The notes beneath the pieces are model-generated. The model was not told the origin of the DNA, did no database searches, and worked only from the letters and a program-made list of their open reading frames with translations. A program made the position numbers and the translations under genes. Below, piece after piece: positions 14,608 through 55,423 of a stretch of DNA of 64,000 nt (position 1 is the stretch's first letter; every line of letters starts with the position of its first letter). The stretch is from Bacillota bacterium (GTDB lineage: Bacteria; Bacillota; Clostridia; Christensenellales; CAG-138): assembly GCA_023399275.1 (NCBI GenBank), contig JAEWQH010000009.1, positions 2,489 to 66,488 of the forward strand, written 5' to 3'.

Positions 14608-15372
14608 CTACGGCTCCGCCTGCGACCCGGCGGCGAACTTGTTGCGATATTCCAGCGGCGTCACGCCGTATTTCCTGCGAAATGCGCTGCTGAAGTACCG
14701 CGCGTCCGAGAAGCCGACCAGCGCCGCGACGTCGCCGATCTTGCGCCCCACATCCGCCAGATAGCGTTTGGAGCGCTCCATGCGCACGTCGTTGAGATAG
14801 TCTGAAAAGTTCTGTCCCGTGGTCTTTTTGAATAGCTCCGAAAGATAGTTTGGCGAGATGTAGAGCGCGCCTGCCGCATCCCTGAGCGTAAACTTCGCGT
14901 GGTGGTTTTGCTCGATGAGCTCCATCGCGCGCAAAATGAGCAGGTTTTGCACCGGGGCCGCACCCTCCGGCGGCGCAACCTCGCGGCGGATGCGCTCCGT
15001 CCGCTCCAGCAGCTCGCGTTCGATCTGCCCGAGCGCCTGGATGATCTCGTCCGGCGCGGTCGGCTTGGTCAGATACTTGCGCACGCCGAGCTCGATCGCC
15101 CGCTGCGCATAGTCAAAGCGGCTGTAGCCGCTGAGGATGATCACGGGTATCTCCGTGTTGACCGAGCGGATCTCGCGGATCATATCCAGCCCCTGCATGC
15201 CGGGCATACGGATATCCGTAATGACGACGTCCACCTCGTTTTCATAGAGAAAATCCAGCGCGCTCCGCGCTTCGGCAAACACGCCCGCCACGCACCAGCC
15301 CTCGCGCTGGCTCAGCAGCCGGCTCAGCCCTTTCCGAATCTTCGGCTCGTCGTCTACGATGATGATTTGCAT
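14608..15372 (-). CDS. Two-component response regulator, REC + AraC-type HTH (YesN-like)
   Basis: ORF trimmed to the ATG at 15372 (MQIIIVDDEPKIRKG…) after GGAGGCGGAGC. The C-terminus carries an AraC HTH (…VGFSDARYFSSAFRRKYGVTPLEYR). Confidence 0.9.
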   Translation of the reverse strand: MQIIIVDDEPKIRKGLSRLLSQREGWCVAGVFAEARSALDFLYENEVDVVITDIRMPGMQGLDMIREIRSVNTEIPVIILSGYSRFDYAQRAIELGVRKYLTKPTAPDEIIQALGQIERELLERTERIRREVAPPEGAAPVQNLLILRAMELIEQNHHAKFTLRDAAGALYISPNYLSELFKKTTGQNFSDYLNDVRMERSKRYLADVGRKIGDVAALVGFSDARYFSSAFRRKYGVTPLEYRNKFAAGSQAEP

Positions 15373-17171
15373 GCTCCGCCTCCTTCCTGCGCACAGGTCT
15401 GCTCCGCCGGCCGGATCAGCGCCGCTTCGTCGTCCAGCGGCAGGCTGATGGTGACGGAAACACCGCCGCCCAGCCGATTGTCCACCGTGAACGCGCATCG
15501 TTCGCCAAAGTGCAGCTGCAGCCGCCGCGCGACGTTTCGCACACCGATGTTCTTGTAGCCGATGGTGTCGTTTCGCAGCAGCCGCTTGAACTGATAGAGC
15601 TCATCCGGCGTCATGCCGCGGCCATTGTCGCTGACCGTGATGAGCACGCGCCCGCCTTCGCGGCGCGCTACGACGCGCACGGTACCGTCCCGCCCAGCGT
15701 GCTGGATGCCGTGGTCGATGGCATTCTCGATCAGCGGCTGCAAAAACAGCTTCGGCACCTTGAATTTCTCGATGGAGAGGTCGAGGTCCAGCGTGAACTC
15801 CAGCCTGTCCTCCAGCCGGTATTTTTGAATCAGCAGGTAATCCTTGACATAGCGGCATTCCTCCAGCAGCGTCACCATACTGCTCCCCGTGTCCATGCTG
15901 TACTGCATGAGCTTGCCGAGCGCAACGACGATCGCGCTGGCCTCCATATCGTCCCGCTCGATGAGCATCCAGTTGATGGTGTCGAGCGTGTTGTAGAGAA
16001 AATGCGGGTTGATCTGCGCCTGCAGCGCCTCGATCTCGGCCGTTTTCTGCGCAATCTTCTCCTGATAGACCTGATTGACCAGAATGCGGATGCGGTTGAC
16101 CATATAGTTGAACGTCTCGGTCAGCTCTCCGATCTCGTCTTTGCGGTCGTTTTCCAGCTGCAGCTCAAAGTTTTTGTCTTGCACCTGCTTCATGCCGTTT
16201 TTCAGTCGGGCGAGCGGCTTCGTGATCGCGATGGACAGTATGAGCAGAAACAGCGACGCCAGCGACACGGAGATGGCAACCAGAACGACGGTATACTGCT
16301 TGAGCGACCCCGCCTCGGGAAAGAGCTTGCTCTCGGGGATCATCGTGAAAGTGATCCACCCGGTCAGGCCGTTGTATTGCGCGCAGACATAGTATGGCGT
16401 TCCTCCCAGCTCCACGATGGACTTTCGCTCCCCCGCGCGGTAGCGTTCGAGTATGCTTGCGCGCCAGTCGTCATTGACGGTGTTGTCCGCGTAGATCACG
16501 TCGCCGTTGCGATCGGTGACAAAGGTGGTCTGATAGCCCAAGATCTTCTGCTTGGTCAGAATCGCACTGCCGAAGTCGCGCGGGCTGATCTGCACCGCAA
16601 CGAGCCCGACGGTATCCCCGGAAGAATCCCGTATGCCGGAGTAAGCCAGCAGGATCTTCGATTGATCGCCCGGATTGGGATAGAGGTTTTCGGAAAGGTT
16701 CGACCAGATCGTCTTGCCGGGGTATTGCGCCGCGGCGGCATAGAGCGCCGCAAGCAGCGCGGCATCCGGCTGCCGCGTCTCCTCGCCGCTCGCATAGGCG
16801 ACCTGCCCTCCGAGCAAAACGCTTACGTCGCTGATCTCCACAAACGGGCCGAAGAGATTTTCGCACAGGCGCGAGAGTCCCGCGGTACCGATGATGGCCG
16901 GGGCTTGCGCGCCGCTCAGCGCGGCCAGCTCCGCCGCCTCCGCGCTCTGCGTTACGGTTCGCATCAGGCTGTCGATCTGCCGCACCTTGGCATTGAGGCT
17001 TACGTCGATGCGATTGATCGTATCGGCAAGCACGCGTTTTTCGCTCTGGCGCACAACGGTGTCCGCCTTGCTGTAGGATAGCGCGCCGACGACTACCCCC
17101 AGCAGCGCAAGCGGAATCGCGCCCATGAGCAGCAGCTTTTTCCAGAACGATATATTTTTAAAAAACTCCAT
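15354..17171 (-). CDS. Sensor histidine kinase (YesM-like: 2 TM, HAMP, His_kinase, HATPase_c)
   Basis: 605 aa. Motif QINPHFLYNTLDTI, then the C-terminal ATPase region DNGRGM…GVRNV. Its 3' end overlaps the regulator start by 19 nt. Confidence 0.9.
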   Translation of the reverse strand: MEFFKNISFWKKLLLMGAIPLALLGVVVGALSYSKADTVVRQSEKRVLADTINRIDVSLNAKVRQIDSLMRTVTQSAEAAELAALSGAQAPAIIGTAGLSRLCENLFGPFVEISDVSVLLGGQVAYASGEETRQPDAALLAALYAAAAQYPGKTIWSNLSENLYPNPGDQSKILLAYSGIRDSSGDTVGLVAVQISPRDFGSAILTKQKILGYQTTFVTDRNGDVIYADNTVNDDWRASILERYRAGERKSIVELGGTPYYVCAQYNGLTGWITFTMIPESKLFPEAGSLKQYTVVLVAISVSLASLFLLILSIAITKPLARLKNGMKQVQDKNFELQLENDRKDEIGELTETFNYMVNRIRILVNQVYQEKIAQKTAEIEALQAQINPHFLYNTLDTINWMLIERDDMEASAIVVALGKLMQYSMDTGSSMVTLLEECRYVKDYLLIQKYRLEDRLEFTLDLDLSIEKFKVPKLFLQPLIENAIDHGIQHAGRDGTVRVVARREGGRVLITVSDNGRGMTPDELYQFKRLLRNDTIGYKNIGVRNVARRLQLHFGERCAFTVDNRLGGGVSVTISLPLDDEAALIRPAEQTCAQEGGGACKSSS

Positions 17172-17255: not shown

Positions 17256-19346
17256 TCATGCGCCCGGCGGCGTCACCCAGGGCTTGCTCCCGTCGTTGTA
17301 GACGGGGTCGTCAACGCCCGGCACGAGGTCGGATGTGCCCCAGAACAGCCCATCCGTCCACGGACGCTGCACATCGCTGCCGATGCCGCTGTGCTGCGAC
17401 AGGCTTTCGCCCATGAAGATCATGGCGGTCGAGGCCCCTCCATCGAGGTTATAGGCAACCCGGCAGCCATACAGGTAGAAGAGCTGCGTAAACTCCTGCA
17501 GCGTCATGCCAACGCTGTGATCCTTTTGCCGCCCGTCTACGGTGATCGCGATAAAGTAACCCGGTTCGACCATGCCGAGGCCGCTTCTGGGATTCGCGCG
17601 CTCAAGGTTGCTGCGGCTCGTACTCTTGCCGCGCACGCCGTCGTTGAGCAGCGTCGGCCCAAACGAAAACGTATTGAGCACGCCCTGCGCAAGCAGTTCT
17701 TCGGCGGAGATCGTTCCTGGTTTATAGATCCGGATCGTGAGCTCATCCGGATCAAACGCCATGATATCCTCCGCCTGATTGCGACTGTAGACCTTGCCGT
17801 TGCGCATCAGTATGCCCTTTTGGTCCACCTCCGCCTGAATCAGGTTGTCCCCCGTGATGCCGAGCACCGCGCGGTAGCGCCGCGCCATTCGCCAGGCGTG
17901 CTCAAGCCCCGGCTGGGCCAGTGGGTTATCGTTTCGCACCCCGGCAAAGAAGGCGTCCTCCCCGCGCATGCGGATCTGCGCAACGCAGCAGGTGATCGGC
18001 TCGCCGCTCGCCCGGGTGAGGTGAATGCGGTCTATGAGGATGGAGAGCGTGTCCGAGCGGTACGCCCAGTGCTCGTTTTCGGGGTCGTTTACGACCACCT
18101 CCTGCGGGTCATCCCCGCTGCGGAAATACGCATCCCATGGATCGGGTGTCGGCGTCGGCTCCGCGGATGCGGTCGCCGTGGGTGTCGCCGTCGGCCCGGG
18201 CGTAAGCGCAGGCGCGGGCGACTCTACCCCTTCTGCCGCTCCATCCAGCCGGCCGCGCGCCGTAAGAACCAGCGCCGCAGCCAGGCAGAGCGCGCAGGCG
18301 GCGATCGCCGCGCGTCGAAGCAACGCGCGCCGCCAAAGGAGAATGGCCGCGGCAAGGGCCGCAACGGCGAGCACGCCTAGAACGGCCGCCGTGGTCGGAC
18401 GCGGACTCGCCTCCTCCCGGGCAATGCCGGCCTCTGCGTACGGCAAGCCGTCCGCAGAGGGTTCCTCCGGCGCGGGCGTCGGCGTTTTCACCGGCTCCGG
18501 CGTCGGCGAAACCATCGGCGTCGGCGACGCCGTGGGGCCGAGAAGCGCCGCATCCAGCCCGTCGAACAGGTCGCCGGATGTCGGATCAAACGCGGATTCA
18601 TCCGCGGCGAAGGCGAGGCCGTACTGCGCGCTTGTATAGCCCGGCCCGTCGCTGATCTCGATCGGGTATGTCTCCGGATAGTACGCGTACCCTTGCCGGT
18701 CGAGCGCCAGCGCATTCAACCCATCAAAACGCTCGAGCGGCCGGGTGCGGTCGATCACCACCGGTGCATCGCCGTATTGGTGCGAAAAAAGCCGCAGCAC
18801 CTGCCACGCGCCATACAGCTCCGCGCTCTGCGGATACCGCGTCGCCTCATCGGTGTAGCGCACAGCCTGCACCGTGCAGCTCGATGCAACGATATGCGCA
18901 CCGTGCCCGTACTCGCCCTGCGCATCGTGCGTAAGCACGACGGCGGGCCGATACTGGCGGATGACGCCGACGAGATACGTCGTCACCGCACGGCTGTCCC
19001 AGTAGAGCAGCGCCTCACGCTCCGTACTGGTGTAGACGGAGGAAAACGAGCCAAAGACAGCGCGCACGCGATCCCCAAAGCGCGCGAGCGCGTCCCTCGC
19101 CGCCTGCCGCTGCGCCGCGCCGTCGCTCGAGAGATAGACGACCACGGCGGAGCGCCCCTGTTCCCCGGCATACAGCGGCAGCGCGCCGCCGAGAAAGAGA
19201 TACTCGTCCCCGGGATGCGCGCAGACGATCATGAGGTCCACGCCACCCTGCGCGGATGTGGACTCCGCCGCTCCCGCCGAGGGCGTGAGAAAAAGGGCTC
19301 CCAAAACGACCGCCGCACTCAGGGCGGCCAAGAGTTTTTTTCGCAT
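17256..19346 (-). CDS. Bifunctional-looking envelope protein: N-terminal PIG-L/LmbE-type deacetylase + TM pair + C-terminal phosphodiester glycosidase (NAGPA/DUF2233-like)
   Basis: ORF trimmed to the ATG at 19346 (MRKKLLAALSAAVVLGA…, signal-like). Contains VCAHPGDEYLFLGG and HDAQGEYGHGAH (PIG-L motifs), P/T/A-rich linkers, two central hydrophobic helices, and a C-terminal …ITVDGRQ…YNLDGGASTAMIF… region. Confidence 0.7.
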   Translation of the reverse strand: MRKKLLAALSAAVVLGALFLTPSAGAAESTSAQGGVDLMIVCAHPGDEYLFLGGALPLYAGEQGRSAVVVYLSSDGAAQRQAARDALARFGDRVRAVFGSFSSVYTSTEREALLYWDSRAVTTYLVGVIRQYRPAVVLTHDAQGEYGHGAHIVASSCTVQAVRYTDEATRYPQSAELYGAWQVLRLFSHQYGDAPVVIDRTRPLERFDGLNALALDRQGYAYYPETYPIEISDGPGYTSAQYGLAFAADESAFDPTSGDLFDGLDAALLGPTASPTPMVSPTPEPVKTPTPAPEEPSADGLPYAEAGIAREEASPRPTTAAVLGVLAVAALAAAILLWRRALLRRAAIAACALCLAAALVLTARGRLDGAAEGVESPAPALTPGPTATPTATASAEPTPTPDPWDAYFRSGDDPQEVVVNDPENEHWAYRSDTLSILIDRIHLTRASGEPITCCVAQIRMRGEDAFFAGVRNDNPLAQPGLEHAWRMARRYRAVLGITGDNLIQAEVDQKGILMRNGKVYSRNQAEDIMAFDPDELTIRIYKPGTISAEELLAQGVLNTFSFGPTLLNDGVRGKSTSRSNLERANPRSGLGMVEPGYFIAITVDGRQKDHSVGMTLQEFTQLFYLYGCRVAYNLDGGASTAMIFMGESLSQHSGIGSDVQRPWTDGLFWGTSDLVPGVDDPVYNDGSKPWVTPPGA

Positions 19347-19606
19347 CGGCTTCTCCAGACAAATCCATCCTCTGCGCACGGCGCGGCAAAAAGCCGCCGC
19401 AGCTCCGGCTGATATGCTACCTATTATAGCAGAAAACCCTGCGCGCGCGTTTTTCACCTCACTCCGTGAGAACCGCCGCTTTGCAAAGCGCGGCGCCCCC
19501 GCAGGCCGCCCCCAGGCGGCATCCAACCCGACGGATACGGGCGAAGGAATTGCACTCGGGTCCGCTAAGGCGTATACTGTTGCTATTCTTGGTTGGAGAG
19601 AAATGC

Positions 19607-20578
19607 ATGCTCTATTCTTTGTTTTCGGTTTCCTACGACGTCCGCTGGGTGCTCGCCAGCGTTTTTGCCTCGTTTATTCTCACGTTTTTTGCCATCCGGA
19701 TCGGCATCGGCCGCTTACCCAAGGATCAGGGCAGAAAATACGCCGTCAACAGCGAGCTATCCAAGGGCAAACCGCGCGGTGCGGGCCTGATCTTCAGCAT
19801 CTGTGTCGTTGCCGTGTTCCTCGTGTTTGTTCCGTTTCGTTGGGAATACGTCGTCTACTGCGCGCTGTTCCTGCTCTCGATGCTCTCGGGGTATCTGGAC
19901 GACCGCAGCGTCCAGTCCTGGAGCGAGCTGCGAAAGGGACTGCTCGACCTCGCCATCTGCCTTGCAGCGGCGGGCACATATCTGCTCTTTAACGAGTCGC
20001 ACAGTCTCGCGCTCTTCGGCTGGACGCTCGTGCTGCCCAAGTGGGCGTTTCTGATCGTCGCCACATTTGTTCTCTGGATCTCGATCAACTTCACCAATTG
20101 TACGGACGGCGTGGACGGCCTGCTCGGCTCGGTTTCCGCCGTTTCGATGGCCACCTTTGCCGCCATCTTCCTGCTCATGGGCGGCTCGCTCGACCTCGCG
20201 CAGATGTGCTTTGTATTCATCGGCTCGCTTCTGGCATACCTGGCATTCAACGCTTCGCCAAGCCAGATCATCATGGGCGACGCGGGTTCGCGCACCATCG
20301 GCATCTTCCTTGGCGTGATGGCGCTCAAGACGTATAACCTGCTCTATTTTATCCCCGCCGTGCTGGTGATCGTCCTCGACGGCGGCATCGGGCTGTTTAA
20401 GCTGCTGTTCATCCGGTTGACGAAGATCAAGGGCTTTCTCAAGTCCGTCCGCACCCCGCTGCACGATCACGCCCGCAAGAACATGGGCTGGTCGGACACG
20501 CAGGTGGGCGTGCGCTTCTCGATCCTTCAGCTGCTCGTCAGCGGCCTTTGCATCGCGGCGCTGCTGCTGCGCCGCTGA
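19607..20578 (+). CDS. MraY/WecA-superfamily polyprenyl-phosphate sugar-phosphate transferase (MraY paralog)
   Basis: ORF trimmed to the ATG at 19607 (MLYSLFSVSY…) after GGAGAG. Motifs GYLDD, NFTNCTDGVDGL, MGDAGSR and PLHDH are in the order seen in MraY-type enzymes. Confidence 0.75.
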   Translation: MLYSLFSVSYDVRWVLASVFASFILTFFAIRIGIGRLPKDQGRKYAVNSELSKGKPRGAGLIFSICVVAVFLVFVPFRWEYVVYCALFLLSMLSGYLDDRSVQSWSELRKGLLDLAICLAAAGTYLLFNESHSLALFGWTLVLPKWAFLIVATFVLWISINFTNCTDGVDGLLGSVSAVSMATFAAIFLLMGGSLDLAQMCFVFIGSLLAYLAFNASPSQIIMGDAGSRTIGIFLGVMALKTYNLLYFIPAVLVIVLDGGIGLFKLLFIRLTKIKGFLKSVRTPLHDHARKNMGWSDTQVGVRFSILQLLVSGLCIAALLLRR

Positions 20579-20583
20579 CGCAC

Positions 20584-20613
20584 GAAGCCGCCCGGCCAGG
20601 GGCGGCTTTTTTG
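20584..20613. terminator. Rho-independent terminator (bidirectional position)
   Basis: GAAGCCGCCC-GGCCAG-GGGCGGCTTTTTTG. Confidence 0.8.
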
Positions 20614-20665: not shown

Positions 20666-21544
20666 CTAATAGAACTGCGGGCGGCGCGTCATCCTGCCTT
20701 TCATCTGCGGCAAATAGAACAACTCCCGCTCGATACGCATGACCGCCAGCCTGTCGATGCGATAGTTTCGAACCGCCGTATCCTCGTTCACTTCAAAAAA
20801 TTCACTCCAGCGTGCTTCGCTGGCGTTCGGATCCTGATAGGACGGCAAGACGTAGCCAATCTGCGCTTGCTCGCCGCGCAGGAGGCAGGCGAAGATGGAA
20901 TATCCGCTGTTGTCTGCGATGTATGCGCCCTGCTCCGTGGGGTTCGACTGCAGCAGCACGGCGCGCAGGCCCGCCCCTTTCACGATCTCAAACCACTCCG
21001 TCTCGGAAACCACGCCTGCAAGCCGGCTGGCAAGCGCGAGCAGCTCCGGTTCCTCTCCTGCGCAAACGGGGTCTTGCTCCCCCGCCTTCGGCTGCGCGGC
21101 TATCCGCTTCGCTTCCTGCGAGTCGTTTTGCGCCGCCATCCGTTCCAGCGCGACCGAATCGATCCGCAGATGCGCATCCCTCGGCCAGGCGACCTGTTCA
21201 ACGCGGAGCGGGGCGCGAACAGCGATTCCGTCCCGCAAGGAGTCGGCGATCTTGCCAAGCTGCCTCGTCTGGCGGGCGCGCTCATGCGCAGCTTTCGAAA
21301 CGGCGATCGCAACCCACATCAGCGCGGCGACCCCTATCACCGCAAGCACCAGCGCGGCGAGCGACATCCATTTCTCCCCCAGGATTATAACGCCGAGATG
21401 CAGCTCGTTCCCCGCGGATACATCCATACCCGATCCGCCTTGCCCGGATGGAATCCATCCCACAGCAAGCGTCCGCGAAACGGGGAGCACGCACAACGGC
21501 AGCGGCAAAAGCAGCGCAGCGAGCGCTTTCATTCTTCTTGTCAC
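20666..21544 (-). CDS. Hypothetical membrane-anchored protein (operon gene 5 of 5)
   Basis: 292 aa. GTG start 5 nt after GGGAGG, with a GTGA overlap with the stop of the upstream gene. Has a signal-like N-terminus, one clear TM (WMSLAALVLAVIGVAALMWVAIAV), and a ~200-aa domain I do not recognise. Confidence 0.6.
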   Translation of the reverse strand: MTRRMKALAALLLPLPLCVLPVSRTLAVGWIPSGQGGSGMDVSAGNELHLGVIILGEKWMSLAALVLAVIGVAALMWVAIAVSKAAHERARQTRQLGKIADSLRDGIAVRAPLRVEQVAWPRDAHLRIDSVALERMAAQNDSQEAKRIAAQPKAGEQDPVCAGEEPELLALASRLAGVVSETEWFEIVKGAGLRAVLLQSNPTEQGAYIADNSGYSIFACLLRGEQAQIGYVLPSYQDPNASEARWSEFFEVNEDTAVRNYRIDRLAVMRIERELFYLPQMKGRMTRRPQFY

Positions 21545-24500
21545 AAATGCCTCCCTTCGTGGTCCCGGAGCATGCTCAAGGCGTCCTGCAGATACTTATC
21601 GCCGACAGCCTCCAGCGCATTCAGAAAATATCCGTATTTTTTCGGCTTGGCCCCGATGATGCCGTCCACCCCCGGAAGGGTCAACACCGCCGGGTCGTAT
21701 TCATTCGCCCCAAAGCGCCAACCATAGCTCGTCTCTGCCACAACGCGAAACGCTTTTATATACGACGAAACCATATCCGGATCGGTGCATATCTCTATTT
21801 GTCTATATTGCGTCGCCTGATAGGCGGGAAGCTCCGCCGTCTGCTCCAGATTCGGCTCGAATATCGCCTGATTCGTTGCGCCTGCAACAAAGTATTCATT
21901 CGGCACGCTTTGCAGCGCCCCAAACGCTACCTCTTCCTTCGGCCTCTGCGAAAAGCGGCAAACGAACCGCTCGTCGGGTATGTTCAGTTTGCTTGCTCTC
22001 TGAAACAGAAGGCGGATAAAGTGTACCGTCCGCTTGACATCCGGCGTAATCCAACGAACGATCTTCGATCCGTTTCCTGCAAGCAGCATCGAGATCTGCA
22101 GGTTGTCATCTTCCCAATCGAACATCACGGCCGAAAGCCAAACCACCGCGCCGAGATAGAACGCGATCCGCTTTTTGATCACCGAAAACCCCGGAGCGTC
22201 CTGCTCGTATTGCTCTCGAAAAGTCAGGTTTTCCGCGTCGTTCGCGCATCGGTTCATAAATGCTTCCCCCAGATTTGCGGGCTGCAAGGCCGCCGCCGGG
22301 TTCGACGGGTCGCGCGGGATGCGAATGGAGAACAGATCCTCGATCAGGCTATCGCTGTTTCGGGCGGAAAAAGCCTGGATATATTGATCTGGGTTGCGAA
22401 TGACCGTCCTCAAGTTCTCACCGGATTCTCTCATGAGTTTGCGCAGGAAGAAAAAATCCGCCGCACTGAGCGTCTCCAGCAGGATCTTGCGCGCGCCGAA
22501 CGCCAGCGATGCGGCCACCGAGTTTCTCGGTCTGTTTGTACCTTCCTGGCTGATGTAGAGATCTGTCGATCCGCCGCCGATGTCCATGATGAAGTAATTC
22601 TGGTTGAAGCTCTCTTGCTGCACGGAATAGCGAAACGCAGCTTCGCTCTCCGTCAGGCACGTGATCTGCTGAGCGACGGCTGTCGCATGAGGTGCAACCG
22701 CCTCGGCCTGCTGCGGACTCTGCAGCAAAACACCGGTCGATTGGCAGACCGTCATCAGCATGGAATTGAGCGTGTTGAAGTACGACACCCGCATGTTTTC
22801 GTCAAACGCCAGCGGATATGTCGCCGTAAGGGCGATGCTGGCGCAGCCGCGGCAGCGCGCCTCCAGCGCAAGCATCGTCAATAACTGCGTCAGAATTGCA
22901 CAGGTGCGATGCCCGTTCGTCTGATCCGACCGCTGCCACTTGAGGTCGGAGCAAAGCACCGGCCATTTCTCCGGTTCTCGCGCCTCAACAAATGCGCGAA
23001 AATAGATCCAGCTATCGCGAAACACGCGCCGCGGCTGATCCCCGGCGCCGGCATCCGCCAGAATAGTCTGCATCGGCATGCAGGAAGGGTACCGTGCCGC
23101 GCACTGCGGATCCTCCTCCAGCTGCCGGAAGGAATCCTGCGCGTGCAGGGTTCGGCGCCTTACGAAACCCGCTTGGTCCTTCGGCAGATGCAGCGGGGGA
23201 AAGAAATACTTCTCCAGACGCGATGTATCGCGCCCCTCGCTGTCCGCCGCGTTCATCAGCGGCAAGCTCCACAGGTGCACGCCGTCGATCCGAAAAGCGG
23301 CATCGCCATCGATGCTGGCGTAGAGCGTGGTGGCGGACGTTCCGAAGTCAATTGCCGCGTGAAATACTCGCTCGGGCCTGCCCGCCGGGATTTCAGGCCG
23401 CGGACGGATCTGCAGATACCCGATCAGCTGATCATCCTTGCGCAGGGCGCATCGCTCAGGCGCGCTGGAAAGCCGGCTATACAGCAAGGTCCCGTCCGCC
23501 CCATCCTCTTTCGTGTACTGCTTTGCCGGGGTTGCGGCGCTTGGCTCCGACGGCTCCAGCCGATAGCCGTTGATTTCGTCACAGAAGAAATAGTACTCTC
23601 CCCAGCCCGCAATCCTCTGCCGCGGCCAGATCGCGGCGGTGCAGAGGTTTCGAAAGAGCTGGCTGTCGATCTGCGCCGCCAGGTACGTTTGCGTAAGATC
23701 GAGATCGCCCAGCGTGACCGTTACGGTGATGCCGTTGATCTCAACCCCGTTTTTCGAATATGTGGGGCAAATGCTGTAGTCCGGCTCAAGCGCAAGATTA
23801 TCCTCCCAAAGGCGCCAAAAAGTCTCCGTCACCGGTAGGGCTACGAAGAAGTGCGCCGTCTTTCCCTTCCCCAGATCATGGCTGACCAGGCATCTTGGCG
23901 CAATGCCCCCGGCGAACCGATTGGTGTCCAAAAGATTCGGCTGCTCCGACGCCTGATCGATCAACACATAGAACACCCGGTCAAGAAACAGGCGCAGACC
24001 CGTCGGCACGGACACTCCGTTGATCTGCAATCCAACCTGCTCCGCATCCTGCGAAAGAAACGCGCGGAGATTCGTCGTGCTTTGCATGTTCAGCCGGAAT
24101 GCGTCCGCAAGGGCTTTCTCGTAACCAAATATCAGGTCCATATTCTGCGCACCCGCATTCGCGTTCGCGCGGTAGTTTTTGAGCCAGCTGTATAGCAAAA
24201 GCGCATGCACCGGCAGCATGACGGGAGTCTCCTCCTCCGTCTGCTTGCGCATAAGCGGGTAAGCACGGCCTTCACGCTCCTCAACCGGAGCATGCACCTG
24301 CCGATCCGTCAGCCAGGGAATCCGATCCGGATAGACGAACCGAAGATTTCGCCAGGCATCCTTGGTCGGAACCACATGTACGCCCGGAGACGACATCGCG
24401 ATCGGATAGCGCACTCTGTCCGCCTCGACGTAGTAGATAATCATGCTCTCCCAGTCCGCGGCCTGTGGGCGGCTGTTGTACGCCGCGCGGAGATGGGCGC

Positions 24501-24846
24501 TGTAAACGGGATCCGCAAAGCGGATCGTCTGCGAATGGATCTCCACGCCGTAGGACTCCGCCAGCACCAGTATGGCGAGCATGGCGCGCCATTCGCGCCG
24601 GGCGATCTGCTCATACTCCAAATAGCTCGGATCCACCGCCGTGTTGAGCAGCAGCATCTCAAACAGGCGGTGCTGGCTCCAGATGTCCGGCACGGAGCTG
24701 ATCCGGCGAAAATCCGTCTGCTTCGGGCCCTCCTCCTGCCACGCGCTCGAGATGCGAAGCTCCTGGCCGATGTCATGCAGCTTCGAGACATCGCCGCTGA
24801 GGGCAGTATTGTTCGGATGGGACGAAAACCAGTGATAAAACGACAT
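21541..24846 (-). CDS. Large (~1101 aa) hypothetical protein with an Hsp70/actin-fold ATPase module in its C-terminal half (operon gene 4)
   Basis: ORF trimmed to the ATG at 24846 (MSFYHWFSSHP…) after GGAGGCAAGG. Motifs occur in actin-fold order: AAIDFGTSATT (23329..23361), MDIGGGSTD (22561..22587), LLAGNGSKI (22060..22086). I do not recognise the N-terminal ~490 aa. Confidence 0.65.
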   Translation of the reverse strand: MSFYHWFSSHPNNTALSGDVSKLHDIGQELRISSAWQEEGPKQTDFRRISSVPDIWSQHRLFEMLLLNTAVDPSYLEYEQIARREWRAMLAILVLAESYGVEIHSQTIRFADPVYSAHLRAAYNSRPQAADWESMIIYYVEADRVRYPIAMSSPGVHVVPTKDAWRNLRFVYPDRIPWLTDRQVHAPVEEREGRAYPLMRKQTEEETPVMLPVHALLLYSWLKNYRANANAGAQNMDLIFGYEKALADAFRLNMQSTTNLRAFLSQDAEQVGLQINGVSVPTGLRLFLDRVFYVLIDQASEQPNLLDTNRFAGGIAPRCLVSHDLGKGKTAHFFVALPVTETFWRLWEDNLALEPDYSICPTYSKNGVEINGITVTVTLGDLDLTQTYLAAQIDSQLFRNLCTAAIWPRQRIAGWGEYYFFCDEINGYRLEPSEPSAATPAKQYTKEDGADGTLLYSRLSSAPERCALRKDDQLIGYLQIRPRPEIPAGRPERVFHAAIDFGTSATTLYASIDGDAAFRIDGVHLWSLPLMNAADSEGRDTSRLEKYFFPPLHLPKDQAGFVRRRTLHAQDSFRQLEEDPQCAARYPSCMPMQTILADAGAGDQPRRVFRDSWIYFRAFVEAREPEKWPVLCSDLKWQRSDQTNGHRTCAILTQLLTMLALEARCRGCASIALTATYPLAFDENMRVSYFNTLNSMLMTVCQSTGVLLQSPQQAEAVAPHATAVAQQITCLTESEAAFRYSVQQESFNQNYFIMDIGGGSTDLYISQEGTNRPRNSVAASLAFGARKILLETLSAADFFFLRKLMRESGENLRTVIRNPDQYIQAFSARNSDSLIEDLFSIRIPRDPSNPAAALQPANLGEAFMNRCANDAENLTFREQYEQDAPGFSVIKKRIAFYLGAVVWLSAVMFDWEDDNLQISMLLAGNGSKIVRWITPDVKRTVHFIRLLFQRASKLNIPDERFVCRFSQRPKEEVAFGALQSVPNEYFVAGATNQAIFEPNLEQTAELPAYQATQYRQIEICTDPDMVSSYIKAFRVVAETSYGWRFGANEYDPAVLTLPGVDGIIGAKPKKYGYFLNALEAVGDKYLQDALSMLRDHEGRHL

Positions 24847-24871
24847 ATCCTTGCCTCCGTGTTCGTGTCCG

Positions 24872-26449
24872 TTACGCGCGCCGCACGCAGCACTCCGCCA
24901 AAGAAGAGACGAAATACGCAACTGCATGCTCGGGGTCTACGCGCGCCGAGTTCATCTGCGAGGTGATCCGCGCACAGGGGATGCCCAGCATATCACACGC
25001 GGTTGAACCTTCGCGCGCTACGCGCTGAATGGCCTGATAAATCAGCGGCGTGTTTCTCAGCACGTTACCCTCTATCTTCAGCAGTTCGTTCATGCCGTGG
25101 TGATCCAGCTCCTCCAGCCAGCGGAAGATCTGCTTCGTAAATGCCAGCGGCACGCCTACCCCCTCCGTTCGACTGTCATAGGTTTTGTGCAGGTTGCGCT
25201 GCCTGCCCCACACCGTGCGGAGCACCTCCGGCCGGTAATTCCACGGACACCGCCCGCTGACGCGGTAATAAACGCCCAGCATCAGGCAAAAGCGCTCCAG
25301 CCGGAGGATGTAATCCTGCACCGAGGCGATCCGCATCTCACCCGGCAGCCCGTGCGACGCCGGAAAAAACTCGAAACGGGTCAGCGGAAAAGCCGCTTCG
25401 GGAGGAATATCCAGCGTGGGATCGGAGTTGACCCATTTCAGCGGAACATAGACCTTGCTTTGCGCATCTGCCGATGCGGGCAGATCGCCGGCGAAATACC
25501 GGCAGATACCGATGGCCGCCATCAACTCCGCCGGCATGGACGGGTCGTCCTGCCCCTCGTGGTCCTCGCTGGCCCGGTCCAGCCGCACGCCGGCCCATGT
25601 GCCGTCCTCCTTTTTCTTTTCCATCTGCCGCCGGTCGTCGCCCACAAACTGTGCAAATTCCAGTTCGGAGAGCACATCGGACATCTCGTAGTACTTCAGC
25701 GCCATCTTGCTGTTGATGACAAACAATCCGCTGTCCACGTCGGTATCTCTCCCGATATCGAAGTAGGGCAGCATGAGCGTCAGCGCAACGCGCCTTGCAA
25801 ACGGCGCCGTCTCGGTATTGTTTTCGTTGCGGCAGGCGCGCACAAACCGCCGCGCCAGCGTCGGCGCTCCGCTCGCCCCCGTCCCGCCGAATACGGAGCC
25901 GACAAACATCACGCGCAGCTCATCCTGTGTGCTGATGCCGGAAAAGATCGATCTCCAGAACCCGCTCAGGTCGTTCCATTCCCGGTCGAACTGCTCCGCC
26001 CAGATCAGCGAGCCGATGCGCGGCCTGCCCTTGCAGCCCCGGCGCAGCTCCATCGCGCGGTCGTCCCCTCCAAACAGCGCATGAAACGCCAGCGCGTCCG
26101 GCCCCGTGAGGTAATCGTTTCCCACCAGATCGTCAAGCGTGCTGCGGTCGTTGATCGGCGTGGACAGTCTCTCCATCGCATCGATCCCCTTCGGCTTCCA
26201 GCAGGGGCGCTCGGCGTTTTCATCCACGATCACAGAAAGATAGGGAAGCGCTTCGTTGACGCTGCGAATCATCTCCTCCAGCTCAACCCGATCCCCGCCC
26301 GCTACGATGTCCAAATCCACAAGGCGGAGCTCCAGCTTGTACTCCGTCTGGCACAGGTCACTCAGGTACCCGCTCGCAGCCAATGCCACGAGAGACTGGG
26401 CAACGCGCATGCCGGAGCCGCCGATCGCCACCAGAACAAATTTCGTCAT
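24872..26449 (-). CDS. Divergent tubulin/FtsZ-superfamily GTPase-like protein (operon gene 3)
   Basis: ORF trimmed to the ATG at 26449 (MTKFVLVAIGGSGMRVA…) after GGGAGGGGAAGG. Three motifs: AIGGSGMRV (26402..26428), GCKGRPRIG (26012..26038), and GSVFGGTGASGAP (25862..25900), which resembles the tubulin signature GGGTGS/TG. Confidence 0.6.
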   Translation of the reverse strand: MTKFVLVAIGGSGMRVAQSLVALAASGYLSDLCQTEYKLELRLVDLDIVAGGDRVELEEMIRSVNEALPYLSVIVDENAERPCWKPKGIDAMERLSTPINDRSTLDDLVGNDYLTGPDALAFHALFGGDDRAMELRRGCKGRPRIGSLIWAEQFDREWNDLSGFWRSIFSGISTQDELRVMFVGSVFGGTGASGAPTLARRFVRACRNENNTETAPFARRVALTLMLPYFDIGRDTDVDSGLFVINSKMALKYYEMSDVLSELEFAQFVGDDRRQMEKKKEDGTWAGVRLDRASEDHEGQDDPSMPAELMAAIGICRYFAGDLPASADAQSKVYVPLKWVNSDPTLDIPPEAAFPLTRFEFFPASHGLPGEMRIASVQDYILRLERFCLMLGVYYRVSGRCPWNYRPEVLRTVWGRQRNLHKTYDSRTEGVGVPLAFTKQIFRWLEELDHHGMNELLKIEGNVLRNTPLIYQAIQRVAREGSTACDMLGIPCARITSQMNSARVDPEHAVAYFVSSLAECCVRRA

Positions 26450-26465
26450 ATGCCTTCCCCTCCCT

Positions 26466-27023
26466 TTAGCGCGTCGGATAGACCCGCTTGATCTTGTGAT
26501 CGATCCATCTGGACAGCGGCCAGCGCACGACGCAGTTGGTCGCCGGCACCGCATCCATGCAGATGCGCCAGAGCAGCACGCCGCACACAACAAAGACATA
26601 GTACGGCAGCCATAGCTTCAAAACGCTGTCGTTTGCATTGGGCAGCAGGATTCCGATCCAGTTTCCCGAAGACAGCGCATATCGATAGCCGGACATCGCA
26701 GCGGCGCAGACCACGATCAAAAACGCATTTATGATATTCTGCATCCGGGTGCGTGCAGACAGTCGCGGCCCAAAATCCCCTTTTTTCTCATTCACGATGA
26801 AAAAGACCAGATTCAGCAACCAAACAGCCGCGATGCCGCCGGCGTGAATCCAACGCGTCGCATCCGAAAACTGCTGCCCAATCCGCTGCGCCGCGTCGTC
26901 CAGGTAAAACACGCCTGTCAGCGCGGTGCGATACCAGACGGGCGGAAACAGCGCCAACACTGCGGCAGCCAGAAACGCCGTAATTGCGCGCAGTGCGACT
27001 CGTTTTCTGAAAGTTGCATCCAT
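26466..27023 (-). CDS. Small 4-TM membrane protein (operon gene 2)
   Basis: ORF trimmed to the ATG at 27023 (MDATFRKRVALRAITAFLAAAV…) after GGGAGG. 185 aa with four hydrophobic helices. Confidence 0.6.
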   Translation of the reverse strand: MDATFRKRVALRAITAFLAAAVLALFPPVWYRTALTGVFYLDDAAQRIGQQFSDATRWIHAGGIAAVWLLNLVFFIVNEKKGDFGPRLSARTRMQNIINAFLIVVCAAAMSGYRYALSSGNWIGILLPNANDSVLKLWLPYYVFVVCGVLLWRICMDAVPATNCVVRWPLSRWIDHKIKRVYPTR

Positions 27024-27045: not shown

Positions 27046-28836
27046 TTACTGAATTCCGGTCTGAATCTGCTTTGCCTCCACAACGCTGAAAGCCCAGCCG
27101 CCAAAGTCTTCCGTCTCTTCCCACGTGGCTGAACTGAGGTATTTGCCCGGCACGTCGCGCACGACCATGCCGAACATCACCGTCTGAACGCACGCCTCCG
27201 TCTGATCCCGGATCGCTTCGTCTACCAGCGCGATCTGCCCGTCGGCAATCCCCCCGATGAGCAGGTTGGAAAGAAACGGCGTCCTGGCCGTGGTTGCATA
27301 GGTATATCGCGCGGAGGTCGTCGTTTGTCCGTCGCGAACAAACTCGCGGTCAAACGTCTTGAGGTTGAGCGTAAGCGCATTCACCCAATCGGTATCATAG
27401 AGCGCGTTGAGCGTTTCGCGCCGCGGCGTGACAGCGACGCGGACGCTGATCGTGCAAAGCAGCGGTTCATCCTTGGCAAGCTGCGCCGTATCGACCGAGA
27501 GCACGATCTCGATCGTCTCCCCCGCTTCGTCGATCACCGCGCTTTCGCAGCGCACCAGGGCGGTAGACGGCTCCACCCAGTCCGCCTCCGGCTGCGCGCC
27601 TGCGTTCTCACGATATGTCAGCATGCGAATCTGTGTCGTAACGGTGCAGTCCTCCCGTGAAAACGAAATCTGCCCTGCCGGCACTACCAGTCCGTATTTG
27701 TCGACTATGTCTTCGGCCTTCTCCAGGGAATCCGTCAGCGTAAACGGGACCGTACAGCGCACCTTCACGTTCTGTTCGCCGCTGCCGCGCTCAAGGTCGT
27801 AGATCTTGGCAATCGGAACGGCCTCCAGCAACCGCTGGTATGACTCGGGAACCTCCTCTGCGGAAGGGTAACGGATGGCACCCGCTTCATCCGCAAGGCC
27901 GCGCACGAGAAATTGCGCGGGATAGTCGGCCGCGTCATACTGCTGATATCCGAGGGAAAACGAAGCGAAGATGTCGTCCTTATCCCGGCGCGAAACCCCG
28001 TACTCGGAGAAAAACAGCGCATAATGCGGCGTGCTCTCATCGAGCAGCCCTCCGCTCTCCAGTGAGGCGAGCGCTTTTTGCATCGCGCCGAGTACCTGCC
28101 GGTCGTCCCCCATGAACAGCAGGTAGAGCGGATGGCGGAAGTTTCCGTCTGCGTCGCGCTCCTGCACCATATAGTCGCTGAGCTTTCGGGTGCGGCCAGT
28201 CGCAGGATTGACGGGCAGGTTCTCAATCGCGCCGCGAAACTCTCCCACGATGGCGATGATGCCGAGCGTCGCGTTTTCCGGCTGCAGCACCTTGCTGCGC
28301 AGCGCCGTGGCCGCTTTCACGCAGTCGTCCTCGGTCGGGATCATCAGATCCGAAATCAATATCATCAACCGGTCGGAACTTCGCTGGTAGCGCTTCGCCA
28401 TGGCCGTGATGACGGAAGCGATATCGTTGCTCTCTTCTTGAAAGAACGGTTCCTGAACGGCCTCCTGAAAAAATGGTTCGGTGGATTCATGCAGAGACGT
28501 GCCGTTTATGAGGAGTTCGCTCGCGCGCAGATAGGTGCACTCGGCGCCGATGCCGACGCTTGAAACGGCGCTGAGCGCGGCGCGATAGCTCATGCAATAC
28601 TGTGCGACAAAGCCCTTCATGCCAAATCCGTCGTCAACGACGATGTCGTATCGCACCTGCTCCGTCCGGTCTGACTGTGCCTTCGCAGATTGCGGTTCGA
28701 GCAAGTCCAGCCCCCCATACAGCGCTTCTGTCGGCTCCATGATCCCGTATGGCTCCGGTGTTTCCGGTTTTCCGCAGCCGTACAAAGCAAAACAGCCCAT
28801 GAGGCAGATCAGCACACATAGTAACGTCTTTTTCAT
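27046..28836 (-). CDS. Lipoprotein, ~596 aa, with a possible degenerate vWA-like N-terminal domain (operon gene 1)
   Basis: ORF trimmed to the ATG at 28836 (MKKTLLCVLICLMGCFALYGCGKPE…; lipobox LYGC) after GGGAGA. YDIVVDDGFGMKGF and DRLMILISDLMIP resemble vWA beta-1 and beta-4 strands, but the MIDAS DxSxS motif is absent. Confidence 0.55.
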   Translation of the reverse strand: MKKTLLCVLICLMGCFALYGCGKPETPEPYGIMEPTEALYGGLDLLEPQSAKAQSDRTEQVRYDIVVDDGFGMKGFVAQYCMSYRAALSAVSSVGIGAECTYLRASELLINGTSLHESTEPFFQEAVQEPFFQEESNDIASVITAMAKRYQRSSDRLMILISDLMIPTEDDCVKAATALRSKVLQPENATLGIIAIVGEFRGAIENLPVNPATGRTRKLSDYMVQERDADGNFRHPLYLLFMGDDRQVLGAMQKALASLESGGLLDESTPHYALFFSEYGVSRRDKDDIFASFSLGYQQYDAADYPAQFLVRGLADEAGAIRYPSAEEVPESYQRLLEAVPIAKIYDLERGSGEQNVKVRCTVPFTLTDSLEKAEDIVDKYGLVVPAGQISFSREDCTVTTQIRMLTYRENAGAQPEADWVEPSTALVRCESAVIDEAGETIEIVLSVDTAQLAKDEPLLCTISVRVAVTPRRETLNALYDTDWVNALTLNLKTFDREFVRDGQTTTSARYTYATTARTPFLSNLLIGGIADGQIALVDEAIRDQTEACVQTVMFGMVVRDVPGKYLSSATWEETEDFGGWAFSVVEAKQIQTGIQ

Positions 28837-51542: not shown

Positions 51543-51807
51543 GTTACAGCGTTGATCGGGACAGGCCGGTTTCCATAGATTGTCCGCAAGAGCGAGCCGC
51601 GTATGGTGCAAGGCGGCGGCGGGCGGGAAACGCCGGTATCCCCCGTGAGCGCGCACGCCAAAGGCGAGAGCCGAGTAGCGGGCGACGTATCCCCGCGTTA
51701 AGGGGACTTGAGCGGGCGATTCTTTCGCCAAGCAGGGTGGTACCGCGCAGAGCCGATTTCGTGCTTTTCGTCCCTTCTTCTTCGGGGACGGGAGGCCGTT
51801 TTTTTAC
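51543..51807 (+). promoter_or_regulatory. T-box riboswitch leader (candidate Ile specifier AUC at 51638..51640)
   Basis: Stem I elements AGAGCGAGCC…GGTGCAA. Conserved T-box sequence GGGTGGTACCGCG at 51735..51747. A downstream GC-rich hairpin (CGTCCC…GGGACG, extendable with G-U pairs) is followed by CCGTTTTTTT. ileS lies immediately downstream. Confidence 0.8.
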
Positions 51808-51871
51808 GCGTTTTCCGATGCAACCGAGTTTTTTCCCGAATTATGATACGCAAACAAGGAGAGCGAACCGA

Positions 51872-54988: not shown

Positions 54989-55069
54989 AAATACGCCCGG
55001 GCTTTGCCCGCCAAAACGGTTCCTTCGCGCCAATGATTCAAAAAAATGATGCCATTGCTGCATTTTTGC

Positions 55070-55105: not shown

Positions 55106-55389
55106 AATATCCCATATGACCCCAAAAGCGACGAAGGGAACAAGACGCGGTCTCCCCCGCTTAGAGAACCGGCGGTTGGTGCAAGCCGGTGCGGCAGTCC
55201 GTGTGTATGGCTCATCCCGGAGCTTTTTGCCTGAATGATTGCATTAGGGCGAAACGATTGACCCCGTTACCGGTCTCGGCCTTGTTGGAGGCTATCGAGG
55301 GCCGACCGGGAGAACCGGCGGCCGAACCAGGGTGGTACCGCGTTGACACACGCCCCTGACCAAAAGAATTTGGTCAGGGGCGTTTTTTC
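55106..55389 (+). promoter_or_regulatory. T-box riboswitch leader (candidate Leu specifier CUC at 55211..55213)
   Basis: AGAGAACCGGCGGTTGGTGCAA stem I elements. GGCTCAT is a specifier-like context with a purine after the codon. T-box AGGGTGGTACCGCG at 55329..55342. Strong terminator CGCCCCTGACC-N9-GGTCAGGGGCG + TTTTTT. Confidence 0.85.
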
Positions 55390-55423
55390 GTTCTCTGGCC
55401 GCCATGAACAGGAGGAGCTTGCC

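Follow-up and report, generated by a model that had tools for sequence, protein, structure and literature searches.

Tubulin-like and actin-like NTPases are two ancient superfamilies of polymer-forming proteins. In one known pairing, the actin-like ATPase FtsA tethers the tubulin-like FtsZ to the membrane, and the two are encoded by adjacent genes. To our knowledge, dedicated bacterial pairings of the two kinds outside FtsZ-FtsA are essentially unknown. Here we describe a candidate pair in a stretch of 64,000 nucleotides (nt) from a Bacillota bacterium of the Christensenellales (assembly GCA_023399275.1, contig JAEWQH010000009.1), called the window below, whose positions are used throughout. 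The pair lies in a cassette of five genes, g1 to g5, and its larger member is g4, a protein of 1101 amino acids (aa). We read g4 as an ATP-driven partner of the tubulin-like GTPase g3 at the membrane, with a probability of about 0.5 for this reading as a whole.

The closest described systems are themselves predictions. In the vWA-FtsZl1 operons, a divergent Tubulin_2-type protein stands beside an envelope-associated von Willebrand factor A (vWA) protein with a DxSGSM motif and lineage-specific membrane proteins, and Makarova and Koonin read these operons as a 'membrane remodelling system' (PMC2875224). The FtsZl1 proteins are described with a coiled coil and a helical C-terminal domain, and the available sections of that paper give them 763–1208 aa (PMC2875224). 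The same sections list two neighbourhoods with giant proteins of Hsp70-system COGs, amb2961 (DnaK, COG0443) and Cagg_1315 (GrpE, COG0576).

The others are the GAP1-N2-type DO-GTPase systems (Kaur, Burroughs, Iyer and Aravind 2020, PMC7159879), which share with our cassette the operon theme of a tubulin, an Hsp70 fold, an extracellular vWA protein and transmembrane (TM) proteins. Their authors saw in these operons a regulated assembly at the membrane that depends on NTP, and the tubulin/Hsp70/vWA/GTPase operons were predicted as conflict systems (PMC7159879). Beyond these two sets of predictions, our literature search turned up no report of a cassette or defence system that joins a tubulin with an actin/Hsp70 protein.

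The five genes of the cassette lie on one strand in the window, listed here in the order of transcription.

27046..28836, minus strand: g1, 596-aa predicted lipoprotein with a signal peptide and Cys, extracytoplasmic (hydropathy and sequence)
26466..27023, minus strand: g2, 185-aa small membrane protein with 3–4 TM helices (hydropathy in all loci)
24872..26449, minus strand: g3, 525-aa putative tubulin/FtsZ-superfamily GTPase, Tubulin_2-related and of short form, 25 nt from g4 (motifs and homologues)
21541..24846, minus strand: g4, 1101-aa multidomain ATPase of the actin/Hsp70/sugar-kinase (ASKHA) fold, actin/Hsp70 clade (open reading frame, homologue-aligned start, fold and profile evidence)
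20666..21544, minus strand: g5, 292-aa bitopic membrane protein whose start overlaps the g4 stop as GTGA (hydropathy and sequence)

Compared with the vWA-FtsZl1 operons, the cassette has a putative Tubulin_2-type protein beside an envelope protein with a vWA-like motif and lineage-specific membrane proteins. However, g3 is too short for the long FtsZl1 architecture when compared by length with the sizes in the available sections, and the g4 family is not among the associated families A1–A2 and B1–B9 (PMC2875224). Moreover, OmpA, kinase and GTPase genes are absent here, and the putative vWA domain of g1 is drawn from motifs, the first of which is degenerate in the window.

The cassette differs from the DO-GTPase systems as well. 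DO-GTPases, GAP1 and proteins with fibronectin type III (FNIII) repeats are absent, no GTPase or FNIII Pfam domain is found in the cassette or its neighbours, and no P-loop (Walker A motif) occurs in any of the five cassette proteins. In the published systems the tubulin theme and the Hsp70 plus GrpE theme do not overlap and the Hsp70 is canonical (PMC7159879), whereas the present cassette always combines a short tubulin-like protein with an ASKHA giant that is not canonical. The predicted vWA-FtsZl1 and DO-GTPase systems are the closest precedents, with their defining GTPases and coiled-coil tubulins missing here, and we regard the cassette as a previously undescribed version of the Tubulin_2/vWA operons, which are themselves poorly understood.

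Two better known proteins invite comparison with g4. SrfB (PF07520) is a 'virulence factor' of ~1000 aa with an actin-like ATPase core, encoded in a multi-gene operon. It is similar to g4 in size, but g4 has no PF07520 match and no SrfA- or SrfC-like neighbours. FtsA and FtsZ resemble g4 and g3 in being actin- and tubulin-superfamily NTPases of adjacent, tightly spaced genes in a membrane context. The order is reversed here, with the tubulin-like gene first, FtsA is only a third as large as g4, and the cassette is accessory, patchy and outside the division cluster. We identified in g4 neither a 1C domain like that of FtsA nor an amphipathic helix at the C-terminus, and use FtsA-FtsZ purely as an analogy.

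The extent of g4 is well defined. The original prediction of a 1101-aa frame at 21541–24846 is correct: all 27 aligned homologues share the start position (MSFYHWF or MKFYHWF, with M1 invariant), GGAGG lies 8 nt upstream of ATG 24846, this ATG is 25 nt past the stop of g3, and an identical 1101-aa protein is present in the public protein collection. The longest possible frame starts at ATG 24927 and ends likewise at 21541, with 1128 aa, but this start was rejected since the homologue alignment and the Shine-Dalgarno position favour 24846. Mechanical longest frames over-extend at the 5′ end for g3 (24872–26599, 575 aa) as for g4 (21541–24927), and both would run into the preceding genes. Homologues support starts at 26449 for g3 and 24846 for g4.

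Residues ~490–980 of g4 are an ASKHA core of the actin/Hsp70 branch with all five classical motifs. The core and its motifs, together with a TESEA element, are as follows.

21907..23376, minus strand: ASKHA core, residues 491–980, with IB-like (521–640) and IIB-like (806–915) insertions (Foldseek, profile, weak Ppx-GppA matches)
23326..23358, minus strand: phosphate-1 motif AAIDFGTSATT, residues 497–507 (D500 and G502 invariant in 64 relatives)
22804..22827, minus strand: connect-1 motif TATYPLAF, residues 674–681, compare Hsp70 TVPAYF (P678 invariant; S-Y-P-x-A-F consensus superfamily-wide)
22639..22653, minus strand: TESEA, residues 732–736, aligned with Hsp70 NEPTAA (E733 invariant, catalytic-glutamate equivalent)
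22561..22587, minus strand: phosphate-2 motif MDIGGGSTD, residues 754–762 (D755, G757 and D762 invariant)
22060..22086, minus strand: adenosine motif LLAGNGSKI, residues 921–929 (G924 invariant; N925 and G926 >90%)
21913..21942, minus strand: connect-2 motif PKEEVAFGAL, residues 969–978, compare Hsp70 NPDEAVAxGAA (K970 and G976 invariant; E972 94%)

Conservation is concentrated on these motifs. Across 64 relatives with 17–48% identity to g4, only 14 columns are invariant, and nine of them fall inside the ASKHA motifs (D500, G502, P678, E733, D755, G757, D762, G924 and G976). K970 in connect-2 is invariant as well. Acidic equivalents of D8, E171, D194 and D201 of DnaK are conserved in g4. From these conserved acidic and glycine residues, g4 would bind and hydrolyse a nucleotide.

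The original prediction placed the phosphate-2 and adenosine motifs where they translate exactly, but its phosphate-1 motif was one codon off, since 23329–23361 reads HAAIDFGTSAT. Its wide motif spacing is real, 255 residues from D500 to D755 and 169 from D755 to G924. The larger spacing arises because the core carries two insertions, ~120 residues at the position of Hsp70 subdomain IB and ~110 helical residues at that of subdomain IIB in the model, and this agrees with the Hsp70-like core with insertions that had been proposed.

A full-length AlphaFold2 model of g4, built on 27 homologues, has a predicted local distance difference test score (pLDDT) of 66 and a predicted template modelling score (pTM) of 0.51, the core strands and helices being mostly at 70–90. 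In this model each motif occupies an element that suits it. Phosphate 1 is on a β-hairpin of strands 490–501 and 506–512, YPLAF ends strand 668–677, TESEA is at the junction of strand 729–732 with helix 733–744, and phosphate 2 lies between strands 750–756 and 761–767. GNGSK follows between strand 918–923 and helix 925–932, and PKEEVAFGAL comes after strand 961–965.

Foldseek with the g4 model against PDB gave 227 matches at E ≤ 1e-3, essentially all of them ASKHA proteins. The best 50 of the 227 are Hsp70 nucleotide-binding domains (NBDs), ParM or MreB, with best E values of 5.5e-7, 4.8e-6 and 9.9e-6, respectively. Target TM-scores range over 0.28–0.48 among these best 50 and over 0.39–0.48 for isolated nucleotide-binding domains, and the highest, 0.48, is that of ParM. 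Hence, structure prediction recovers the ASKHA fold with the motifs in compatible secondary-structure elements.

Sequence profiles agree with the structural search. The 64-sequence profile of the g4 family matched MreB (E 3.1e-5, spanning only ~100 residues), an actin-family protein (7e-5), FtsA (1.5e-3) and DnaK (5e-3) among PDB sequences, while DnaK and BiP came up no better than E 5e-3 to 0.6. In the HMMER alignments, TES-A falls on the (N)EP-AA of MreB (EEPFAA) and, with the 27-sequence profile, on that of BiP (NEPTAA), and DIGGGT-D falls on D-GGGT-D. Single-sequence and 27-sequence profile searches of PDB gave nothing significant, and significance was reached only with the 64-sequence profile. 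Together with Foldseek and the motif secondary structure, these matches bear out the originally predicted ASKHA core with motifs in order.

The core thus has the same predicted fold as the NBD of Hsp70/DnaK and as MreB, FtsA and ParM, with five Bork-type motifs in the right order and elements. In contrast with these homologues, g4 has ~490 extra N-terminal residues, enlarged IB and IIB insertions and, where Hsp70 has its substrate-binding domain, a helical tail, and belongs to none of Pfam HSP70, MreB_Mbl, FtsA or Actin at threshold. The PF00012 model did not match g4 at E ≤ 0.01. No HSP70 (PF00012) match appeared at E ≤ 1 in the 27 homologues, and neither g4 nor these homologues gave a threshold match to MreB_Mbl, FtsA or Actin. 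One cyanobacterial orthologue reaches FtsA PF14450 with 18.5 bits against a cut-off of 31.8. We place g4 no finer than in the actin/Hsp70 branch, because the Pfam models for Hsp70, MreB, FtsA, Ppx-GppA and SrfB do not recognise it and because it has no Hsp70 substrate-binding domain.

The only Pfam or NCBIfam signals of g4 are sub-threshold, and they would suit a metabolic ASKHA enzyme, such as a kinase, or a phosphatase of the Ppx/GppA type, with a small molecule or polyphosphate as substrate. For g4, Ppx-GppA (PF02541) reaches 13.3 bits where the cut-off is 27, weak matches recur in 26 of the 27 close homologues with a best E of 5.9e-5, always in the phosphate-2 region, and NCBIfam gives only an exopolyphosphatase/Ppx-GppA signal at DIGGGSTD. 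These matches cover ~40–60 residues with 13–16 bits against cut-offs of 27 and 307. Among the best 50 of the 227 structural hits all are Hsp70, ParM or MreB, profile hits at E ≤ 0.1 are actin-like ATPases and DnaK with no kinases or Ppx, and connect-1 (YPxAF) and connect-2 (PKxEVAxG) are of the actin/Hsp70 type. A metabolic enzyme is accordingly very improbable in our estimate.

The Hsp70 likeness raises a more serious competitor, namely that g4 neither tethers nor polymerises but acts as an Hsp70-type remodeller. ATP-driven opening and closing of the NBD would be coupled to the N-terminal β-sandwiches, which would clamp a segment of a client. The likeliest task would be the disassembly or nucleation of g3 polymers, or else the handling of the membrane partners. 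Hsp70 NBDs head the structural matches, and TESEA, DIGGGSTD and PKEEVAFGAL align with NEPTAA, DLGGGTFD and NPDEAVAxGAA of Hsp70. Published tubulin/vWA/GTPase operons sometimes have Hsp70 and GrpE instead of the tubulin (PMC7159879), and the giant DnaK-like gene amb2961 stands in a published operon according to the available sections of PMC2875224.

However, the many Hsp70 NBD entries in PDB inflate their share of the top hits, and it is ParM that has the highest TM-score. The core of g4 is followed by ~120 mostly helical residues with no Hsp70 substrate-binding domain and no Hsp70 match beyond the NBD, the Pfam HSP70 model finds none of 27 members even at E ≤ 1, and no GrpE- or DnaJ-like gene occurs in the cassette. 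We regard the remodeller as unlikely, if a good deal less so than a metabolic enzyme.

Outside the core, g4 divides into four further parts.

24697..24846, minus strand: residues 1–50, conserved N-terminal peptide, predicted disordered (pLDDT <50 in both models)
23992..24696, minus strand: residues 51–285, N-terminal α/β domain with the signature SVPDIWSQH...EWRAM...PIAMSSP (model pLDDT 75–93)
23377..23991, minus strand: residues 286–490, two β-sandwich modules, weakly Ig/filamin-like (all-β in both models)
21541..21906, minus strand: residues 981–1101, C-terminal mostly helical domain, the least conserved part with 29% identity within the clade (g4 model)

The N-terminal half was modelled separately as residues 1–492 with a better outcome (pLDDT 77, pTM 0.75), giving the disordered peptide 1–50, an α/β domain at ~51–285 and two β-sandwiches at ~286–480. 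The model matched nothing in PDB or in the viral BFVD at E ≤ 1e-3. For the β-sandwich part, the best Foldseek matches are tandem Ig-like domains with E values of 4e-3 to 1e-2 and probabilities of 0.5–0.7, which are not significant. The region had been called one without a nameable motif, and the lack of a detectable PDB or BFVD relative accords with that, but it is folded and conserved rather than featureless.

Conservation of this half even exceeds that of the core. Residues 1–180 are the best-conserved part of g4, with ~70% identity within the clade versus 46% for the ATPase core, and P53, W86, P127, S153, W178, P338, W407, P408, W415 and Y418 are nearly invariant superfamily-wide. Within the clade, residues 1–50 share 68% identity, and M1, Y4, H5, W6, F7, H10 and P11 are invariant, all seven within MSFYHWFSSHPNE. 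Because they are predicted disordered yet 68% identical, they may be a short docking segment that becomes folded upon binding a partner.

The family of g4 is large. When 1.84 billion representative proteins were searched exhaustively with the profile, 1038 clusters came up at E ≤ 1e-3, of which 398 reached E ≤ 1e-10, and the best 150 members are mostly 1050–1250 aa long (median 1085 aa). Where long members were examined, the profile match runs over their full length, N-terminus included. The close clade comprises 46 full-length homologue clusters at 35–58% identity, confined to metagenome-assembled genomes (MAGs) of Christensenellaceae-type and other Clostridia, with 15 GTDB species. Such clusters, the shared start, the family size, the invariant motif residues and the self-consistent models refute the idea that the motifs arose by chance in a non-coding or misframed frame.

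Annotation does not reach this family. Eight sampled distant members and four orthologues from other lineages have no significant Pfam or NCBIfam assignment, and the RefSeq name of the cyanobacterial orthologue is 'hypothetical protein'. For SrfB PF07520, the 27 close members were negative at E ≤ 1, and so were the eight distant members and the cyanobacterial orthologue at E ≤ 0.01. By tblastn, the window g4 matched nothing in the phage collection or in 72,556 plasmids. Hence, g4 is a member of a large unnamed family, without a model in Pfam 2025, NCBIfam 2026 or PADLOC, within a known fold superfamily.

The neighbour g3 was originally called tubulin-like, and its distant homologues carry Pfam Tubulin_2 in agreement. 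At E 1e-17 to 1e-8, homologues of g3 have PF13809 and are annotated 'tubulin-like domain-containing protein'. The protein itself shows a T1-like AIGGSGMR and a T4-like GGTGASG motif, whose glycines are invariant in 40 relatives. Its length is 503–539 aa across g3 and all relatives examined, and it is the best-conserved partner in the clade with 63–71% identity. The window g3 gave no direct Pfam or PDB hit, and a 40-sequence g3 profile found no tubulin or FtsZ match in PDB.

The two genes keep together. The order g1-g2-g3-g4-g5 is retained in 15 of 18 close-relative loci, the contigs of the other three breaking off inside the cassette. In 17 of the 18, two of them on broken contigs, g4 comes immediately after g3. 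These loci are from Christensenellales-type and Oscillospiraceae MAGs, the close-alignment locus search having returned Clostridia MAGs only. Distant loci were reached via homologues of g3 and plasmid tblastn, and all eight examined have the g1-g2-g3-g4 core with a further ORF (open reading frame). Thus g3 adjoins g4 in every locus complete enough, namely the window, 17 of 18 close ones and eight of eight distant ones.

The distant loci are from an unassigned metagenome contig, Defluviitaleaceae, Phenylobacterium, a Gloeothece plasmid, a Synechococcus/Picosynechococcus plasmid, Bryobacteraceae, Nitrospirota and one more metagenome contig. Profile HMMs (hidden Markov models) confirmed the homology of g1, g3 and g4 in them. 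The sizes are 362–604 aa for the lipoprotein-like g1, 156–194 aa for g2, 503–539 aa for g3 and 1073–1351 aa for g4, and one or two further ORFs come after g4. In Gloeothece, g1 is on the opposite strand. With the Clostridia, the cassette is thus present in Alphaproteobacteria, Cyanobacteria (on plasmids), Acidobacteriota and Nitrospirota.

The genes are packed tightly. In the window, the gaps between g1, g2, g3 and g4 are 16–25 nt on the same strand, and g4 and g5 overlap by 4 nt, the TGA of g4 at 21541–21543 and the GTG of g5 at 21542–21544 forming GTGA with GGGAGG 5 nt upstream of the GTG. This overlap of the g4 stop with the start of a downstream membrane protein had been noted in the original prediction; it is real, and the 4-nt g4/g5 overlap recurs in other loci. 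More generally, start/stop overlaps of g3/g4 or g4/g5 recur among loci, g3 and g4 overlapping in one distant locus. Such an arrangement may indicate stoichiometric coupling of g4 and g5, as was suggested, and perhaps a physical interaction.

The cassette is on five cyanobacterial plasmids, and ParM is a good structural match of g4. Plasmid partition proteins include TubZ of the tubulin superfamily (PMC2875224), and one could imagine that g4 and g3 segregate plasmids or chromosomes in the manner of ParM and TubZ. However, the cassette has no gene for a DNA-binding adaptor and no iteron- or centromere-like repeat array on its flanks, the products of three genes belong to the envelope, most occurrences are chromosomal, and the window g4 is unmatched in the plasmid set above. 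A role in DNA segregation is likewise very improbable.

The envelope side of the cassette is formed by g1, g2 and g5. No TM segment is predicted by hydropathy in g3 or g4, either in the window or in the closest relatives, and we take both as soluble, with g4 in the cytoplasm. The small g2 keeps its position in every locus that covers it, and in the distant loci with hydropathy examined (L003–L005), both g2 and g5 are predicted to lie in the membrane. The predicted topology of g5 consists of a signal peptide, a short ectodomain, one TM segment and a cytoplasmic tail of ~220 aa, the C-terminal ~120 aa being conserved in the clade and in L002 and L003.

The N-terminal domain of g1 has vWA-like β1 and β4 motifs, and its motif resembling the metal-ion-dependent adhesion site is degenerate in the window clade (DDGFGM, both serines lost). 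In orthologues from other phyla, D-x-S-G-S-M is followed by an hhhhTDL strand. The full D-x-S-G-S-M is found in Cyanobacteria, Nitrospirota and the metagenome contig L025, with the variants DASLSM in Phenylobacterium and DTTKSM in Acidobacteriota. By these motifs, g1 is tentatively a vWA-like protein.

Searches with g1 returned little else. It gave no Pfam VWA hit, its profile found no vWA structure in PDB, and hhalign against an approximate vWA query sequence gave no match. A large protein search yielded only close homologues without Pfam domains. The sole PDB sequence match of the g1 profile is 6mtz_A, an uncharacterised structural-genomics protein, with E 0.0022.

From gene order, topology and conservation, we propose that the five products form one envelope-spanning complex. 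The ATP cycle of g4 would bind, anchor, cap or gate the assembly of the tubulin-like g3 at the membrane, with a logic like that of FtsA with FtsZ but no orthology. The N-terminal 180 residues and the β-sandwiches of g4 could serve as docking or partner-binding modules. The extracytoplasmic parts, g1 and the ectodomain of g5, would supply the input.

Several points weigh against g4 as the ATP-driven partner of g3. The tubulin assignment of g3 is transitive, coming through homologues that carry PF13809, and among 191 family members examined there is no fusion of g3 with g4. The suggested interaction of g4 with g3 or the membrane proteins is drawn from gene order. The full-length g4 model is moderate by the scores given above, and its IB-like insertion is poorly modelled. 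Moreover, an FtsA-like tether, an Hsp70-like remodeller and a self-polymerising actin-like protein would fit the evidence alike.

The last of these is the basis of a further reading, in which g4 forms filaments as MreB, ParM and MamK do and builds with g3 a housekeeping membrane structure for envelope organisation, vesicle formation or cell shape. This matches the prediction made for the vWA-FtsZl1 operons (PMC2875224). The best profile hits are MreB and an actin-family protein, and ParM and MreB are among the structural matches. The cassette sits at one chromosomal position, the same Glycos_transf_4 gene following g5 in nine loci of the close clade (eight distinct, L001 and L015 being one site), and the window neighbourhood is ordinary metabolism with no defence-family match.

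This Glycos_transf_4 gene is 76–84% identical between loci versus 46–68% for the cassette proteins. With the same neighbour and the lower identity, the cassette appears vertically retained at its site and evolving much faster than the neighbour. Such fast divergence speaks against a housekeeping cytoskeleton, and so do the patchy distribution that includes plasmids and the 490 bulky N-terminal residues and two insertions, which are unlike known filament-forming actin homologues. We judge the accessory cytoskeleton rather unlikely on balance.

As to the biological role, a conflict or defence type, with NTP-dependent assembly triggered at the envelope, seems somewhat likelier than a housekeeping envelope or cytoskeletal one, though our confidence is low. 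We lean so because the distribution is patchy across phyla with carriage on cyanobacterial plasmids, and because the cassette diverges faster than the Glycos_transf_4 gene. Some neighbours count in the same direction. The Phenylobacterium cassette adjoins a PDC-S15 defence candidate (7.8e-68) and a DNA methylase, and the Defluviitaleaceae cassette adjoins a Schlafen/AlbA-type gene.

In three loci, from Gram-negative and some other versions of the cassette, genes with TonB_C (plus SH3_3) or with a weak likeness to ZorA/MotA/ExbB come after g4 or g5, and these also count for a conflict role.

L005 14997–16475, L025 13574–15676 and L004 16797–18275: TonB_C or ZorA/MotA/ExbB-like gene

The genes recall the Zorya defence system and the MotA/OmpA genes beside FtsZl1 in Deinococcus, as given in the available sections of PMC2875224. 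As a separate observation, a Ser/Thr protein kinase and a PP2C phosphatase lie within a few kb of the cassette in Bryobacteraceae (L023, 1–1816), and a Ser/Thr kinase does so on the Synechococcus plasmid (L022, 13940–15757). Both echo the kinase/PP2C/vWA theme of published conflict systems (PMC7159879).

Against a defence role, the five window proteins gave no hit in PADLOC-DB 2.0 at E ≤ 0.1, and seven orthologues from three other lineages gave none at E ≤ 0.01. The five proteins have neither a recognisable effector domain nor a P-loop, and phage records hold no relatives. The metabolic neighbourhood in the window and the stable position beside the same Glycos_transf_4 gene in the nine loci likewise count against it.

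A 400-nt non-coding region with the terminator of the upstream gene precedes g1, and the 3′ boundary is a hairpin.

20584..20609, strand not assigned: GC-rich terminator hairpin that separates g5 from the convergent Glycos_transf_4 gene, 3′ cassette boundary

The convergent gene (PF00953, MraY/WecA-type) is at 19466–20578 on the plus strand and abuts the cassette with this strong hairpin. Beyond it, at 14608–17171 and 17256–19526 on the minus strand, are a gene fusing a PIG-L deacetylase with an NAGPA phosphodiester glycosidase and a two-component pair of the YesM/YesN type (dCache-HAMP-His_kinase and Response_reg-AraC). The PIG-L/NAGPA gene and the YesM/YesN pair do not adjoin the cassette in the other loci. 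Elsewhere in the window, a T-box leader (RF00230) at 55122–55360 on the plus strand is the sole Rfam match at the gathering threshold (107 bits versus 93). It lies just past a 1121-aa ORF at 51698–55063 on the minus strand and overlaps the start of an ORF at 55343–57121 on the plus strand.

In its boldest form, our view would make the cassette an undescribed and widespread machine, in which an obligate pair of a tubulin-superfamily GTPase and a giant actin/Hsp70-superfamily ATPase works under the membrane and is wired to a vWA-like lipoprotein. It would be either an envelope-triggered immune system with polymer assembly as the response or a second FtsZ/FtsA-like pair outside division. We hold this tentatively and would not yet bet on it. 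If it is true, the N-terminal domains of g4 would be a new module for binding tubulin or a membrane partner.

A conserved gene pair of the tubulin-like and actin-like kinds outside cell division is unusual in itself, and this one occurs in at least five phyla, including plasmids of tractable cyanobacteria. The analysis yields a domain map of g4, catalytic residues for mutagenesis and a family definition usable by annotation databases. It bears on prokaryotic 'cytoskeletal' NTPases as immune or envelope-sensing assemblies, which were predicted by comparative genomics and never demonstrated. It also bears on the role of the enigmatic Tubulin_2/FtsZl1 proteins.

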